Notes under the pieces: generated by a model
Told to the model about the DNA's origin: nothing
Database searches by the model: none
The model's input: the letters and a program-made list of their open reading frames with translations, nothing else
Translations under genes and position numbers: made by a program
Shown here: positions 1 through 49,809 of the stretch, one piece after another
Position numbering within the stretch: the stretch's first letter is position 1
Layout of the letters: the number at the start of each line of letters is the position of its first letter
Assembly: GCA_000146045.2 (NCBI GenBank)
Contig: BK006934.2
Span: 288,001 to 352,000 of the forward strand
Direction of reading: 5' to 3'
Origin: TPA_inf: Saccharomyces
Taxonomy: Eukaryota
Length of the DNA: 64,000 nt

Positions 1-811
1 CAACTAAATAACGTGGAGATTCTGGAACGAATGTCATACCACCAATCATAAACAAAGCCCAAGCGAAACCTAGACCTAATGGAACTCTCCATTGGACAGA
101 ATTGGTGTAGGTCTTGGTACCGTAGTTTGTACAGTAACCCAAGAAAATACCCAAAGTAATCATAAGTTGGTAACATGAAACCAAAGTACCTCTAATATGC
201 TTTGGAGAGACTTCAGAAATCAACATAGGAGATAAAACGGCAATACCACCGACACCTAAACCAGAGATAATTCTACCAATGAAATATTGGTACCACTTGT
301 TGATTGAGGCAATTTGGATAATGATACCGATAATGTAGATGACAACAACGACAATCAAACCCATTTTACGACCATACATATCACCTAATTTTGCTAAAAT
401 AATACCACCAATGGCACAACCAATGTTGAAAATGGAGACAATTAAACCAGTTCTAACCTTAGACAAATAATAAGTACCATCGTGGTGCTTCATACCAAAT
501 CTTCTGATAAAATCAGTTTGAGCAACAAAACCAGAAATGGTACCAGTATCCCAACCGAAAACAAAACCACCGAAAGCAACCATTAAACAACAGATGGAAA
601 CTGTAACGTAGGCGGAGGCGGGCTTCTTTGGAATTTCAACGTAGTTATTAGATTCTTCGTGATTCTCGTCGAAATCTTTCATGTCATCTCTTTCAGCTTT
701 GTTGGATGGAGTAGACAAAGCGGAATTAGAATCGGATTCAACTGGCGACAAAGCATCAGCTGGAGTATTTTGGACTGCTGTATCCTCTTGATAGGCAGCT
801 TCTTCAGACAT
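1..811 (-). CDS. HXT4: Hexose transporter HXT4, N-terminal about 270 codons (3' part of gene lies left of window). MFS sugar porter.
   Basis: Reverse-strand ORF ends with ATG at 811..809 and reads [14 protein letters not shown]... The region is about 85% nt-identical to HXT1 (1..200 vs 3841..4040). It is the first member of the HXT4-HXT1-HXT5 array. Confidence 0.85.
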
Positions 812-1141
812 TTTTGGCAGATTTTATTGTAAAAGTGTTTCAAAACCAAACCTTGATAAGAGGCTTTGAATATATCTTTTCTTTATGGTTTCTATTACTC
901 ATGAAGAGGAATTGAAGTGAATGAATCGAGAATAATGAATAAAACACTGAGTATTTATATAAAATTTTTTCTAGATGACATATTATTCATTCCCCAGTGT
1001 TGAAGCTTTTCACCACTAATTGACTTGAAGATTATTTTAGTTGCTTTTCTTACCACCCCACCTTCATAAACTTAAAAATATTATATTAGAATTTGAGTTT
1101 TCCTCCGTTGTTTCTTAATCAGAATCGTTAGACGCCGAATA

Positions 1142-1690
1142 ATGGACTGTAAAATCAAAGCAGCTGGAAAAAACTCTGGAATTTTTCATGAAGGTGGCAC
1201 TAAATCGTCGAAGAGCTTCTTGACCGTTTTTATCCGAAGTGTTTTTCCTCTTTCCCCAAGTTTTCCTGCAGGCGGGGGAATATGGGGCCCCATGGAAAAA
1301 AAACCGGGGGGGGTGGGAAAAAAAAAGGGGTCAGAAAAAAAAACTGCTCAGGGAAATATCTTCTTCTCCACAGAAAGAGACGCAGGCCAGGAAAAATGTG
1401 GAATATTATATAAACATTGTTTTTCCATTTTGTACGGATTTTTTTGGAAGAAAGCGGATAAACCGAAAGAAAAAACGGGAAATGGTTCCGGTTTGGGCAT
1501 TGTTTTTCCTATTGGGCAAAAAAAAATCCCGGAACCAGCTGACTCGGATATTTTTCTTCCTTGTTTCCGCTATGCTGCTGCAAGTGACTTTACGAAGGCC
1601 AAGCGTTTCTTGGTGGAAATTACTGCAGTGTACTGGGTTTCGTTGGAGGCCCAGCCTTCATCTGCGTCTTGTTTATTCATTCTCATCTGA
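1142..1690 (+). other. Dubious 182-codon ORF in the HXT4 upstream region (AHT1/YHR093W in S288C). It overlaps the HXT4 promoter and its translation is low-complexity.
   Basis: The ORF spans the homopolymer G/A block 1290..1340 (translated GGGIWG...KKKG). Codon usage is not gene-like. Its length matches the annotated dubious ORF. Confidence 0.3.
1290..1340. promoter_or_regulatory. G/A homopolymer block with Mig1-like GC boxes (AAAAAAAACCGGGGGGGGTGGG, AAAAAAAAAGGGG) in the HXT4 promoter
   Basis: An A8 run followed by CCGGGG fits the Mig1 consensus (AT-rich flank plus SYGGRG). HXT4 is glucose-repressed via Mig1 (established). A CGGATAA Rgt1-type site lies at 1454..1460. Confidence 0.5.
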
Positions 1691-2912
1691 TTATTATATC
1701 TTGATCGGTGCAAAAAAATTTTGAGGTACTTAAAATTTATTTTGCATAGAGATATTCGCATAAATGGAAAACCTAAGCTTTTCAGGTACGACTATTTGGC
1801 AACATCGTTGAACCTGGCTTTTCGGTCCTAACTTTGCACCATCTAGGATGAGACTATCTTGACTGTTTTACTTTTACGCATCGCTAGAAAATACGTGCGC
1901 GTTGCCAAATCAAAATTCCCGCAAATTGATGCGGTAGCGTAGTTCTGTTCCAAAATGAAAGTGAAACAACATAATGTTCCTTCTAGTTTTCGTGTCTGAA
2001 AGCTAAACCTCAAAGTTGAAACTAAAGCATGATTCCCCACCTCCTTCCTATTAGTCTTTTTTCCCGTAAAAGTTGGAAAATATCTGGGGTACTTGCGTCA
2101 GCTGTTCAGATCTTCTCTTACCGCTGTCGTGTCTTGTCTACAATGTCAGGTTGGCAGCCTAAGTTTTGGATTTAATAACCCTAGGGCTTTTCATTCTTTT
2201 ATCAATCAGAACATTTACATGAAGAGGGCTGGAATAAAAAAAAAATATTCGGTTCTCCTCCATGCATAATGACGTAGTATTCTTATTGGCGCCAAACATA
2301 GTGTCATAATGCTTTTTCAACGATTTTAAAGTAACTCTTAGTGGATTGGAAAGGTCGCCTTTTCGATGGTAGCGTGCATTTTCTCGTCATTTTTTTTTTA
2401 CTTGTCGTCTTTTCTTTACTGCTTCACCTCTTATCAAGCAAGTGTTTTTCGTGTCTCCCTGTGCCAGTCAGAAAATACATATGATTGGCAACTGTATATC
2501 CATTGAGATCGACTCGGTTATCTGTTAATGGAAATTATTGCTAGTAATTATAAATACCTAAAAACAACATCCTAACAGGCTTAAGTAACACTACTAGATG
2601 TTGAAGCAGCAGCGTTGTCAATTTCTATTCATTTGACATTTTTCCGAAATCATAAGCGGGCGTTTGAACTATGTATAGCGCCTATGTGGTATTAACCCAT
2701 ACTATATCATATAAAATTTTTCCTCGGAAGAGTGCCAGAATGAAATTTCTTGTTCCTTGGTGAAGGTCAAGAACTAGCAAAGAAAAGAACATCTGTTTAT
2801 GAATTTGACAAGAATTTTGTTTTAACACCAATATAATATCACCTTTATAAAATTTACTGAGAAATTAAATACTGTATAAGTCATTAAAATATGCATATTG
2901 AGCTTGTTTAGT

Positions 2913-37410: not shown

Positions 37411-37597
37411 CTCACCATCCCTATCCAACCGACTATTCTTCTCATCGACTACTACTATCCCATTTAACTCGGGCGCGTTGTTAATTAATCACTCGATGGG
37501 GAATGCCTTGAGCTGACCGCAATGAAAACTTTTAGGGGATCGTCCAACATTAAAGGAAGAACGAAACGGACTCCACAGTTTCTAATATAAATAAACA

Positions 37598-38626
37598 ATG
37601 ATAAAACATATAGTTTCGCCATTCAGGACGAATTTTGTTGGCATCAGCAAGTCCGTGCTGTCAAGGATGATTCATCACAAGGTTACAATCATAGGTTCTG
37701 GCCCCGCTGCCCACACCGCTGCTATATACTTGGCAAGAGCAGAGATGAAGCCCACATTATATGAGGGAATGATGGCCAACGGAATTGCTGCTGGTGGCCA
37801 ATTGACAACAACCACCGATATCGAAAATTTCCCAGGGTTTCCTGAATCGTTGAGTGGCAGTGAACTGATGGAGAGGATGAGGAAACAATCTGCCAAGTTT
37901 GGCACTAACATAATTACCGAGACTGTCTCTAAAGTCGATTTATCTTCAAAACCATTCAGATTATGGACCGAATTTAATGAGGATGCAGAGCCTGTGACCA
38001 CTGATGCTATAATCTTGGCCACGGGTGCTTCCGCTAAGAGAATGCATTTACCAGGGGAGGAAACCTACTGGCAGCAGGGAATATCTGCCTGTGCTGTATG
38101 TGATGGTGCAGTCCCTATCTTTAGAAACAAGCCATTGGCCGTTATTGGTGGTGGTGACTCTGCGTGTGAGGAAGCGGAATTTCTTACGAAGTATGCGTCG
38201 AAAGTATATATATTAGTAAGAAAGGATCATTTTCGTGCATCTGTAATAATGCAGAGACGAATTGAGAAAAATCCAAACATCATTGTTTTGTTCAACACAG
38301 TTGCATTAGAAGCTAAGGGTGATGGTAAGTTATTGAATATGTTGAGAATTAAGAATACTAAAAGTAATGTGGAGAACGATTTAGAAGTAAATGGACTATT
38401 TTACGCAATAGGTCACAGCCCTGCCACAGATATAGTTAAAGGACAAGTAGATGAAGAAGAGACGGGGTATATAAAAACTGTGCCTGGATCGTCTCTGACT
38501 TCTGTGCCAGGTTTTTTTGCTGCAGGTGACGTTCAGGACTCTAGGTATAGACAAGCAGTTACTTCTGCTGGTTCCGGATGCATTGCTGCTTTGGATGCAG
38601 AACGGTACCTAAGTGCCCAAGAGTAA
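37598..38626 (+). CDS. TRR2: TRR2, mitochondrial thioredoxin reductase (342 aa)
   Basis: FAD-binding [10 protein letters not shown], the redox CAVC motif and NADPH-binding GGGDSA. Its N-terminal extension is consistent with a mitochondrial presequence. Confidence 0.92.
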
Positions 38627-45071: not shown

Positions 45072-46394
45072 ATGAATGACTACCATCTCGAGGATACCAC
45101 GTCTGAACTTGAAGCATTAAGATTGGAGAATGCACAATTAAGAGAGCAGCTTGCCAAGAGAGAAGACAGCAGCCGCGACTACCCATTATCTTTGGAAGAA
45201 TACCAACGTTACGGAAGACAAATGATTGTTGAAGAAACAGGTGGTGTAGCAGGTCAAGTCAAGTTGAAAAATACAAAAGTTTTGGTAGTTGGTGCTGGAG
45301 GTTTGGGATGTCCCGCCTTGCCCTACTTAGCGGGCGCTGGCGTGGGCCAAATAGGCATAGTAGATAACGATGTGGTGGAGACTTCCAATTTGCATAGGCA
45401 GGTTCTTCATGATTCTAGCAGAGTTGGAATGTTGAAATGTGAGTCGGCCAGGCAATATATCACGAAACTGAACCCACACATTAACGTCGTTACCTATCCC
45501 GTTAGATTGAACTCCAGTAATGCTTTTGACATTTTCAAAGGTTACAATTATATATTAGACTGCACAGATTCTCCATTAACGAGATACCTGGTGTCTGATG
45601 TTGCAGTTAATCTGGGAATAACAGTAGTGTCTGCATCCGGTTTGGGAACAGAGGGCCAGCTAACTATATTGAATTTTAACAATATAGGGCCATGCTACAG
45701 ATGCTTTTATCCAACACCTCCGCCACCAAATGCCGTGACCTCTTGCCAAGAAGGCGGTGTGATAGGACCTTGCATTGGACTAGTTGGAACAATGATGGCT
45801 GTAGAAACTTTGAAGCTTATCCTAGGAATCTACACCAATGAAAATTTTAGTCCCTTTTTGATGTTATATTCAGGTTTCCCACAGCAGAGCCTGCGCACTT
45901 TCAAAATGAGAGGCAGACAAGAAAAGTGTCTATGCTGTGGTAAGAATCGAACGATAACAAAAGAAGCCATCGAAAAAGGTGAGATCAATTACGAACTGTT
46001 TTGTGGCGCACGAAACTATAATGTATGCGAGCCTGATGAGAGAATCAGTGTGGACGCATTTCAGCGTATCTACAAGGATGATGAATTTCTAGCAAAACAT
46101 ATATTTCTTGATGTTAGGCCATCCCATCATTACGAGATATCTCATTTCCCTGAAGCAGTTAATATTCCAATCAAAAATCTAAGAGATATGAACGGTGATC
46201 TTAAGAAACTGCAAGAAAAACTTCCCAGTGTAGAAAAAGACAGTAATATAGTGATTCTTTGCCGCTACGGTAACGACTCTCAGCTAGCTACAAGATTATT
46301 GAAGGATAAATTTGGGTTTTCTAATGTACGAGACGTGAGAGGAGGATACTTCAAATACATAGACGATATTGATCAAACCATTCCTAAATATTAG
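45072..46394 (+). CDS. UBA4: UBA4, Urm1-activating E1-like enzyme (MoeB/ThiF plus rhodanese domains, 440 aa)
   Basis: Nucleotide-binding GAGGLGCPA, CxxC pairs and a C-terminal rhodanese fold with the catalytic Cys (LCRYGNDSQ). Confidence 0.92.
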   Translation: MNDYHLEDTTSELEALRLENAQLREQLAKREDSSRDYPLSLEEYQRYGRQMIVEETGGVAGQVKLKNTKVLVVGAGGLGCPALPYLAGAGVGQIGIVDNDVVETSNLHRQVLHDSSRVGMLKCESARQYITKLNPHINVVTYPVRLNSSNAFDIFKGYNYILDCTDSPLTRYLVSDVAVNLGITVVSASGLGTEGQLTILNFNNIGPCYRCFYPTPPPPNAVTSCQEGGVIGPCIGLVGTMMAVETLKLILGIYTNENFSPFLMLYSGFPQQSLRTFKMRGRQEKCLCCGKNRTITKEAIEKGEINYELFCGARNYNVCEPDERISVDAFQRIYKDDEFLAKHIFLDVRPSHHYEISHFPEAVNIPIKNLRDMNGDLKKLQEKLPSVEKDSNIVILCRYGNDSQLATRLLKDKFGFSNVRDVRGGYFKYIDDIDQTIPKY

Positions 46395-46526: not shown

Positions 46527-47663
46527 TCAGGCTGCATCCTGCAATTCTTTCAAGGCCGAAGCCAAATCCTTAATCAAATCATTAGCGGATTCACAGCCCA
46601 CAGATACTCTTATTAAAGTTTGGTCGATATATGGGTCAGTCATTGCTCTCCATTCCACAAGGGATTCAATTCCACCCAGTGAGGTCGCATGATGGAAATA
46701 TTTCAGCTTGAGGGGTAATTGTTTACACTGCTCTTTGGTGTACAAAGTGATAGCAAAAACGGGACCATATCCTCCTACCAGTTGCTTTTTAACGAACTCT
46801 TCTGTTTGTAAAGAAGAGTGGTAAATCGTCTTCAATACTTTGTCAAATTCAGATTGGTGATCTGACAAAAATCTAACTAATTTCGTAGCATTTTCTGATT
46901 GTTTGGTTATTCTCATTTCGTAGGTTCTCAGGGATCGCAACAACATGAAACTTTCCAAATTTGCCACGTTTGTACCCAAGTAGATTCTGTCGTCTTTTAG
47001 TTGTCGGGAAGTTGCTTCCTCTTTGACTACAAGGACGCCACTTAACAAGTCAGAATGACCACCAAAGTACTTAGTAGCAGAGTATAGGACAATATCGGCT
47101 CCGAAATTCCATGCGTATTGCAATGGAGGAGATGCGAATGTGGAATCCACTATAAGCAGGGCGCCTTTTGCATGAGCTCTGCGGGCCAAACTCTCGATAT
47201 CAGAAGAGGTACCATATGGGTTTACAGGAGATTCCAGATGGACAATGTCACCTTCAGAAGCACATTTTTCAATATCTTCCAAGGGGTGTTGCTCAATGCC
47301 GTAATTACGGGTCAATATGTTAGCAATTGCTCGAACACCATGGTAGCTCTGTCCGATAAAGATCTTCTTAGGGTTGTAATGTACCATTGCCGCATAGAAC
47401 GCAGCTAACCCTGAAGAATAAATGACAGCATAACCATCGAGGATCTCTGAGAAGATACTCTCTAATCTGGTGCTATTTGGATGCGCTAGCCGTGAATATA
47501 CGGGCTTCTTCTCCATAAAGTCCAAGTTTTCACGCTCTGTCCATGGAATTAGGTCGTCATCGTCGTAACGGAAGGTTGTAGAGACATTAATTGGGGGCGC
47601 CACGTCAGTAACCCTGTTATCTTTATCATCGCCATGAATCAAAGCTGTTGACAAGTCCACCAT
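46527..47663 (-). CDS. YHR112C, PLP-dependent cystathionine gamma-synthase / beta-lyase-like enzyme of unknown role (378 aa)
   Basis: Cys/Met-metabolism PLP-enzyme fold with the PLP-lysine region ([11 protein letters not shown]). 378 aa. Confidence 0.85.
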
Positions 47664-47831
47664 CTTACGTACTCTTTTCGTGCAATCTTTCCTTTATAGC
47701 ATGTACTACAACATTTGAAGAGATGGAGGGATTGCAACGATCTATTGTTGCGCAATATGCTTATATATCGCGTGTTGCATAAACCCATCAAGTGATCGCA
47801 CTCTGAATTAAACACCGCAAAAAAATAGAAA

Positions 47832-47840
47832 CCACAGTTT
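47832..47840 (-). promoter_or_regulatory. Met31/Met32 core site AAACTGTGG (reverse strand), about 170 bp upstream of YHR112C
   Basis: The plus strand reads CCACAGTTT, whose reverse complement is AAACTGTGG, an exact match to the Met31/32 core. Confidence 0.5.
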
Positions 47841-48022
47841 CACCATTTGACAAGAACTCACAAGATATCCTTGAGGTCTATCAGTAAGTGGTTAATCCCG
47901 TACCAAAGCGTATGTGAAGGACTTCAGAAACAGTTATTTCACGTACTACAATTATTACAACTGGCCCTCTTTCCCTTATATATACTGTAAATATTGCGAC
48001 TGACATGGAGACCACATAATCA

Positions 48023-48029
48023 CACGTGA
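48023..48029. promoter_or_regulatory. CACGTGA E-box (Cbf1/Pho4-type) in the YHR112C-APE4 divergent intergenic region
   Basis: acaCACGTGAtaa. It lies 360 bp upstream of YHR112C and 310 bp upstream of APE4. Confidence 0.4.
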
Positions 48030-48336
48030 TAAATAGTCCCGTTCAACTTACGTATATAATGTGATTCAGTGTTCCGCCAAGGAGTAAACTCCTTTAGTTT
48101 AAGGTCTGCTTATTTTTGCAACAGAAGCCTGCCTTGGCTTTCGAGATACTAGTTTCTGGCTACGGTTTTCTATTCCTTATCATTTTAGCCTTATCATACT
48201 TGCTGAAAAGTTGCAGATATCTCCACGCTCTTAAATGAAAGAAAAAAGGGCGTTTTCCTCCTGTATGAATGAAAGAAAAAATTCATGTTATGTGAGCAAG
48301 TAGGTAAAAAGAAAGAATAAAAGGTTCAGCTTTTCT

Positions 48337-49809
48337 ATGTTCAGGATACAACTGAGAACTATGTCCAGCAAAACATGCAAGAGTGATTACCCAAAGGAGT
48401 TTGTCAGTTTCTTAAATAGCTCACACTCTCCTTACCATACAGTTCATAACATCAAAAAGCATCTGGTGTCAAATGGCTTCAAAGAGTTGAGCGAACGTGA
48501 CTCGTGGGCTGGCCACGTCGCACAAAAAGGAAAGTACTTTGTGACAAGAAATGGCTCTTCCATTATTGCGTTTGCTGTTGGTGGAAAGTGGGAGCCTGGT
48601 AATCCAATTGCCATTACGGGTGCTCACACCGACTCCCCCGCATTAAGGATTAAGCCTATTTCTAAAAGAGTCAGTGAGAAGTATTTACAAGTGGGCGTGG
48701 AAACTTATGGTGGCGCTATTTGGCATTCATGGTTTGATAAGGATTTGGGCGTTGCCGGAAGAGTTTTCGTAAAGGATGCGAAAACTGGCAAATCCATTGC
48801 TAGATTGGTGGATTTGAATAGACCTCTGTTAAAGATTCCTACTTTGGCTATTCATCTGGACAGAGACGTAAATCAAAAATTCGAGTTTAATAGAGAAACT
48901 CAACTGTTGCCGATTGGTGGTCTGCAAGAAGACAAAACTGAAGCGAAAACTGAAAAGGAAATTAATAACGGTGAGTTTACCTCCATAAAAACGATAGTAC
49001 AGAGGCATCACGCAGAACTTTTGGGGCTAATAGCCAAAGAACTCGCCATTGATACAATTGAAGACATTGAAGACTTCGAATTGATCCTTTATGATCATAA
49101 TGCATCCACTCTAGGTGGGTTCAACGATGAGTTTGTCTTCTCTGGTCGATTGGATAATTTGACATCTTGTTTCACATCAATGCACGGTTTAACGTTGGCG
49201 GCTGACACAGAAATTGACCGAGAATCAGGCATTAGATTGATGGCATGCTTTGATCATGAGGAGATTGGCTCATCCTCCGCCCAAGGGGCAGATTCTAACT
49301 TCTTGCCTAATATATTGGAAAGGTTGTCCATCCTGAAGGGGGACGGTTCTGATCAAACTAAACCTTTGTTTCACTCGGCAATATTGGAAACTTCCGCTAA
49401 GTCGTTTTTCCTTTCATCTGATGTTGCTCATGCAGTTCATCCAAACTATGCAAACAAATACGAAAGCCAACACAAACCCTTATTGGGTGGTGGTCCCGTA
49501 ATCAAGATTAACGCGAATCAACGTTACATGACCAATTCACCAGGGTTGGTCTTGGTGAAAAGACTAGCAGAGGCTGCTAAAGTCCCTTTGCAATTGTTTG
49601 TCGTAGCTAACGACTCACCATGCGGTTCTACCATCGGCCCCATTTTGGCCTCAAAGACAGGTATTAGAACTCTAGACTTGGGTAATCCTGTGTTGAGTAT
49701 GCATTCGATTAGAGAGACCGGTGGCTCTGCAGACCTGGAGTTCCAAATCAAGTTATTTAAGGAATTTTTTGAACGCTACACTTCCATAGAATCTGAAATT
49801 GTTGTCTAA
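48337..49809 (+). CDS. APE4: APE4, M18-family aspartyl aminopeptidase (490 aa)
   Basis: M18 metal-binding His/Asp/Glu motifs (HTDSP, DHEEIGS). 490 aa. Confidence 0.9.
   Translation: MFRIQLRTMSSKTCKSDYPKEFVSFLNSSHSPYHTVHNIKKHLVSNGFKELSERDSWAGHVAQKGKYFVTRNGSSIIAFAVGGKWEPGNPIAITGAHTDSPALRIKPISKRVSEKYLQVGVETYGGAIWHSWFDKDLGVAGRVFVKDAKTGKSIARLVDLNRPLLKIPTLAIHLDRDVNQKFEFNRETQLLPIGGLQEDKTEAKTEKEINNGEFTSIKTIVQRHHAELLGLIAKELAIDTIEDIEDFELILYDHNASTLGGFNDEFVFSGRLDNLTSCFTSMHGLTLAADTEIDRESGIRLMACFDHEEIGSSSAQGADSNFLPNILERLSILKGDGSDQTKPLFHSAILETSAKSFFLSSDVAHAVHPNYANKYESQHKPLLGGGPVIKINANQRYMTNSPGLVLVKRLAEAAKVPLQLFVVANDSPCGSTIGPILASKTGIRTLDLGNPVLSMHSIRETGGSADLEFQIKLFKEFFERYTSIESEIVV

Follow-up and report, generated by a model that had tools for sequence, protein, structure and literature searches.

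As restated in later work, Lee et al. (2010) defined the Met4 core regulon as 45 genes, all of which have Met31/32 motifs. According to that restatement, met4 mutants and met31 met32 mutants lose the induction of all of the core-regulon genes, and the Class 1 genes additionally require Cbf1 and Met28. Siggers et al. 2011 (Mol Syst Biol 7:555, PMC3737730) discovered the RYAAT recruitment motif: its spacing of 2 bp from the E-box is strict, and its recognition requires the whole Met4-Met28-Cbf1 complex. The promoter of YHR112C was one of the two that they used to validate the motif. In that paper, YHR112C and MET14 are Class 1 genes of the core regulon, in the classes of Lee et al., with high-scoring recruitment sites. 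Endogenous YHR112C was induced upon a switch to low sulfur, as was a reporter with the YHR112C promoter cloned upstream of LYS2 (pYHR112C-LYS2). When RYAAT in this reporter was changed to RYTTA, the low-sulfur induction fell by about 2-fold (P = 3.2e-6).

Other published data mostly point the same way. An information-theory study of motifs from 2007 (PMC2077805) predicted a Met4 site at YHR112C and found the expected expression profile, and Van Oss et al. 2022 (PMC9763685) include YHR112C among the Met4 targets, with its function given as unknown. In transcriptomes from cisplatin exposure and from low temperature, YHR112C clusters with MET genes. [quoted passage not shown] Methionine should repress a Met4 target, yet Jia et al. 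2021 found more YHR112C mRNA when 5 g/l L-methionine was added, in a measurement taken 2 days into fermentation. The regulation of YHR112C by Met4 is already established, and its promoter was dissected in 2010-2011. Here we describe how the promoter compares with the described Met4 promoters and how its elements have fared in related yeasts.

We analyzed a stretch of 64 kb (the window) that includes YHR112C. It corresponds to S. cerevisiae chrVIII 288001..352000, as judged from a published SNP table in which chrVIII:335011 is T218 of YHR112C. The coding sequence of this regulated gene lies at 46527..47663 on the minus strand, with the ATG at 47663, and encodes 378 amino acids. The protein predicted from the window is identical in sequence to YHR112C of strain S288C, and it matches the family of Cys/Met-metabolism PLP-dependent enzymes (PF01053) over nearly its full length (residues 6-372) and well above the gathering score (E = 3.1e-66; 223.9 bits vs. 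a cut-off of 27). Its neighbor at 48337..49809 on the plus strand encodes an M18 aspartyl aminopeptidase (PF02127, E = 1.5e-190), which we identify as APE4 from its position. These results agree with the initial annotation of the locus, which had named YHR112C and APE4 as the flanking genes. The two genes form a divergent pair with a common intergenic region of 673 bp. A ThiF/rhodanese gene (45072..46394) lies downstream of YHR112C.

The first of the regulatory elements is the site for Met31 or Met32. The initial annotation had claimed a Met31/Met32 core about 170 bp upstream of YHR112C, and we found an exact match to AAACTGTGG, including the core TGTGG, at 47832..47840 on the minus strand, which is 169-177 bp upstream of the ATG. 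It forms part of a slightly longer element, GAAACTGTGG (47832..47841, minus strand). Siggers et al. (PMC3737730) described the Met31/32 site of this promoter as a distal site of moderate affinity, 186 bp from the recruitment site. By our measurement, the distance between the centers of the Met31/32 site and the recruitment site is 186.5 bp (47836 to 48022.5), which identifies them as the pair in that paper.

Two exact copies of AAACTGTGG occur in the window, compared to an expectation of 0.64, and 15 of 100 shuffled sequences reach two copies. Within shuffles of the 673-bp intergenic region, the motif is expected just 0.003 times. The only other exact copy in the window (37573..37581, minus strand) comes 17 bp before the ATG of an open reading frame (37598..38626, plus strand) whose product is a pyridine-nucleotide-disulphide oxidoreductase that resembles thioredoxin reductase. 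We considered this copy as a sign of a further Met4 target and set it aside because a distance of 17 bp from the ATG is probably too short for an upstream activating sequence.

The second element is the Cbf1 site. An exact CACGTGA E-box lies at 48023..48029 on the plus strand, where the initial annotation had placed it; this is 360-366 bp from the YHR112C ATG and 308-314 bp from the APE4 ATG, upstream of both. On the minus strand the E-box reads aTCACGTG, with the T flank, and its wider context is A-T-CACGTG-T-G on that strand and CA-CACGTG-AT on the other. The Met4 recruitment motif RYAAT, in the form ATAAT, precedes the E-box on the plus strand (48016..48020) with a spacer of exactly 2 bp. 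The E-box is therefore part of a complete Met4 recruitment site, ATAAT-CA-CACGTGA (48016..48029), which the initial annotation overlooked. This 14-bp composite, RYAATNNCACGTGA, has the sequence ATAATCACACGTGA.

Unlike the E-box taken by itself, the composite exceeds chance. CACGTGA occurs four times in the window, compared to 4.36 expected, so that, counted singly across the window, neither it nor AAACTGTGG is above chance. RYAATNNCACGTGA occurs once in the window, compared to 0.03 expected, and a 13-bp form of it, RYAATNNCACGTG, is expected 0.001 times per shuffle of the 673-bp intergenic region. The three further CACGTGA sites in the window all lack RYAAT, and two of them are inside open reading frames. 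The YHR112C/APE4 region is also the sole intergenic region of the window with both types of motif.

Taken with the published experiments, these features make it very probable that the intergenic region is the upstream activating sequence of a Class 1 Met4-regulon promoter, with a Cbf1/RYAAT site and a Met31/32 site. A homodimer of Cbf1 would bind the CACGTG of the E-box (48023..48028), and the ATAAT at 2 bp from it would let a Met4-Met28 pair dock on Cbf1 to give a trimeric complex. Met31 or Met32, bound to AAACTGTGG about 186 bp nearer to YHR112C, would offer Met4 another tether. When sulfur runs short (low cysteine or S-adenosylmethionine, or exposure to cadmium), Met4 would escape inhibition by SCF-Met30, a step that we take from general knowledge of the pathway. 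Active Met4 would then drive transcription of YHR112C from a conserved TATA box. The candidate for the latter, judged by its sequence and position, is ATATATAAG (47760..47768, minus strand), which precedes the ATG by about 100 bp. The motifs and their spacing are plain in the sequence; the proteins presumably occupy these sites in vivo, and the AAACTGTGG site itself is probably needed for induction.

The initial annotation had argued from the promoter architecture that YHR112C is a Met4-dependent sulfur-limitation gene. Published experiments bear this out: the gene is induced by low sulfur, and mutating RYAAT in the reporter has its roughly 2-fold effect (PMC3737730). The same mutagenesis, together with the T flank and with RYAAT at 2 bp, upholds the view of the E-box as a Cbf1-type site that recruits Met4 with Met28. 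Reading the sequence alone had thus recovered a real, experimentally validated regulatory architecture. As a point against this reading, the RYAAT mutation took away only about half of the induction of the reporter.

To our account of the S. cerevisiae promoter we can add a cross-species footprint. We aligned the window with the syntenic loci of S. kudriavzevii (L005), S. uvarum (L004), S. eubayanus (L006), and another Saccharomyces (L001), which is the closest relative in the set (its YHR112C protein is 97% identical). In S. uvarum, the APE4 orthologue (374..2140 of its locus) was called at 588 amino acids, compared to 490 in the other species. The longer call is probably due to the gene caller's choice of an upstream in-frame start, which would intrude on the intergenic region, and we aligned the S. 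uvarum intergenic region from the APE4 start that is equivalent to the 490-residue form.

In the alignment of the five Saccharomyces, pairwise identity of the intergenic region to that of S. cerevisiae is 51-70%. Against this background, the longest runs that are invariant in all five species are ATGCAACACGC (11 bp), GAAACTGTGG (10 bp), and ATATATAAG (9 bp). The second-longest invariant run is thus the Met31/32 element, and the third is the putative TATA box. AAACTGTGG is on the same strand and in the same place in all five promoters, 171-177 bp from the ATG; its first base is 174-177 bp away in every one of them.

The longest invariant run belongs to the block that is best conserved in the intergenic region (47770..47800, minus strand), which is directly upstream of the putative TATA box of YHR112C and is not a site for the Met4 complex. 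It contains ATGCAACACGC at 47770..47780 and a near-palindromic variant E-box, ATCACTTGAT, at 47787..47796 (both on the minus strand); the variant E-box reads ATCATCTGAT in S. kudriavzevii. The block from ATCACTTGAT to ATGCAACACGC (47770..47796) could be a regulatory site that has not been described before.

The Cbf1/RYAAT composite is more variable. It reads ATAAT-CA-CACGTGA in both S. cerevisiae and L001, GCAAT-TG-CATGTGA in S. kudriavzevii, and ACAAT-AA-CATGTGG in S. eubayanus, so that RYAAT, 2 bp, and CAYRTG are kept in four of the five Saccharomyces. The fifth, S. uvarum, has the degenerate form ACACT-AA-CATGTGG, in which RYAAT has one mismatch. The aligned E-box, CATGTG in the blocks of S. 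kudriavzevii, S. uvarum, and S. eubayanus, corresponds to CACATG, and its T flank is lost in S. uvarum and S. eubayanus. The Met31/32 site is fully conserved in the orthologous Saccharomyces promoters, and the composite is relaxed or degenerate in three species. Because the canonical, high-affinity CACGTG is found only in S. cerevisiae and L001 (two of five), we conclude that the Cbf1 arm is less constrained than the Met31/32 arm. This is a small addition to what was known of the promoter: constraint falls on the Met31/32 site, and the Cbf1/RYAAT composite is the more plastic of the two.

More distant yeasts show further variation. In the promoter of N. castellii (L007), a strong AAAACTGTGGC lies 227-231 bp before the likely start codon (near position 2079 of its locus), and the promoter of K. 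africana carries CTGTGGC. We found no E-box in the promoters of N. castellii, K. africana, or T. globosa. In K. dobzhanskii (L010), the promoter that is shared with the peptidase gene carries a pair of TCACGTGA sites that are 22 bp apart and lie some 291-319 bp before the gene start (position 2001); a search of the same promoter found no RYAAT and no good Met31/32 site. The T. globosa promoter (L009, 1363..2000) has neither motif, though the divergent M18 peptidase neighbor is kept. Judged by these motif matches, the sulfur cis-elements turn over among the orthologous promoters of YHR112C.

The divergent arrangement itself is ancient: YHR112C and APE4 are paired in this way in Saccharomyces, Torulaspora globosa, and Kluyveromyces dobzhanskii. 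This raises the question of which gene is served by the Cbf1/RYAAT element. Upstream activating sequences in yeast act in either orientation, and the E-box is about as near to the ATG of APE4 (308 bp) as to that of YHR112C (360 bp). The element might be a shared bidirectional activating sequence that also, or instead, drives APE4 when sulfur is limiting, and the two TCACGTGA sites in the shared promoter of K. dobzhanskii, in which the ancient pairing is kept, fit with this. However, the published fragment acts towards YHR112C, and our literature searches on APE4 (YHR113W) with Met4 or sulfur returned no report of sulfur control of APE4.

In addition, the half of the region that is closer to APE4 has conserved elements of its own. 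Two GATAAG sites (48176..48181 and 48190..48195, both on the minus strand) are 14 bp apart and 142-161 bp upstream of the ATG of APE4. S. cerevisiae, L001, S. uvarum, and S. eubayanus retain both copies, whereas S. kudriavzevii has only one. From its sequence, the pair resembles a GATA-factor (nitrogen-regulated) element that would serve APE4; a literature search on APE4/YHR113W returned nothing on it.

Since the pYHR112C-LYS2 reporter works in the direction of YHR112C, control of APE4 instead of YHR112C, which the initial annotation had offered as an alternative, is excluded. Control of APE4 as well as YHR112C retains some probability because of the 308-bp distance and the age of the gene pairing. 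Overall, we consider the sharing of the element with APE4 to be unlikely.

The second alternative concerns the protein that binds the E-box. The CACGTG core is common to the sites of Cbf1, Pho4, and Tye7, and Cbf1 sites without RYAAT have been reported as repressive or as independent of Met4 (PMC3408425). The site might therefore belong to Pho4, as the initial annotation had also suggested, or to Cbf1 in its default mode, in which it represses or organizes chromatin without Met4. The sequence around the core bears on this in two ways. The E-box at 48023..48029 (aTCACGTGtg on the minus strand) has a 5' T and has neither the CACGTGGG nor the CACGTTT type of flank. A 5' T is preferred by Cbf1, and CACGTGGG or CACGTTT is typical of Pho4. 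The site also has RYAAT at the strict 2-bp spacing that binding by Met4-Met28-Cbf1 demands, and mutating RYAAT cuts the induction by low sulfur. A Pho4 site fits poorly with the T flank and RYAAT, and we consider it very unlikely that the E-box acts through Pho4 or through Cbf1 without Met4.

That both motifs arose by chance and regulate nothing has almost no probability: the counts of AAACTGTGG and CACGTGA in the 64 kb are, motif by motif, no higher than in shuffled sequences, but the low expectations for the composite (0.03 per window) and for AAACTGTGG (0.003 per 673 bp, yet invariant in five species) stand against it, and the conservation and the functional effect of mutating RYAAT in the reporter refute it.

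We return to the Class 1 promoter with Cbf1/RYAAT and Met31/32 sites as the preferred reading. Its comparison across species and the gene pairing lead to a tentative suggestion, in which we have little confidence: either the Cbf1/Met28 arm is evolutionarily labile and the Met31/32 arm is fixed, or the ancient pairing with APE4 puts the peptidase under the same sulfur control. If the Cbf1/Met28 arm is labile, then the Class 1 dependence of YHR112C on Cbf1 would be a recent, lineage-specific state.

What the promoter says about the enzyme is more limited. In phmmer searches, the nearest relatives of YHR112C with solved structures were yMGL of Yarrowia lipolytica (YALI0C22088g; PDB 9UUW, E = 6.7e-128) and SPAC23A1.14c of S. 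pombe (PDB 7YEO, E = 5e-88), which are in the same subgroup of Cys/Met-metabolism PLP enzymes. The published identity of YHR112C to yMGL is about 54%. Unlike yMGL, purified YHR112C depleted L-methionine only weakly in a published assay. In met17 cells, growth that depends on H2S survives the deletion of YHR112C and is abolished by the deletion of YLL058W; YHR112C is not the H2S-fixing bypass enzyme. The initial annotation had ended by narrowing the role of YHR112C, from its regulation, to transsulfuration or sulfur salvage. This last step is only an inference and adds little: YHR112C already carried an annotation as a trans-sulfuration enzyme, and subsequent studies named no substrate. The remaining question is biochemical: what does a Met4-induced, methionine-gamma-lyase-like PLP enzyme do during sulfur starvation? 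The promoter evidence, which dates from 2010-2011, has not settled it.

As a promoter, the YHR112C upstream region is close to those of the described Class 1 genes. As in MET14, MET16, and MET3, CACGTGA has RYAAT exactly 2 bp to its 5' side. Also as in Class 1 promoters, the site for Met31/Met32 is a moderate one, with AAACTGTGG followed by T rather than C. The gene shares with Class 1 its induction on sulfur limitation, and it is itself a listed member in the 2011 paper. There are three differences. First, the two sites are 186 bp apart, unlike those of MET14, which are 30 bp apart. Second, the upstream activating sequence of YHR112C, unlike the Class 1 examples, lies in a divergent promoter that is common to a peptidase gene. 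Third, the product of YHR112C, unlike those of the Class 1 examples, has no assigned step in a sulfur pathway. Promoters of the MET17/MET25 type, which have the classical sulfur-regulon architecture of TCACGTG plus AAACTGTGG, use the same cis-elements and the same proteins (Cbf1, Met28, Met31/32, and Met4), and the promoter of YHR112C would not differ from them in kind.
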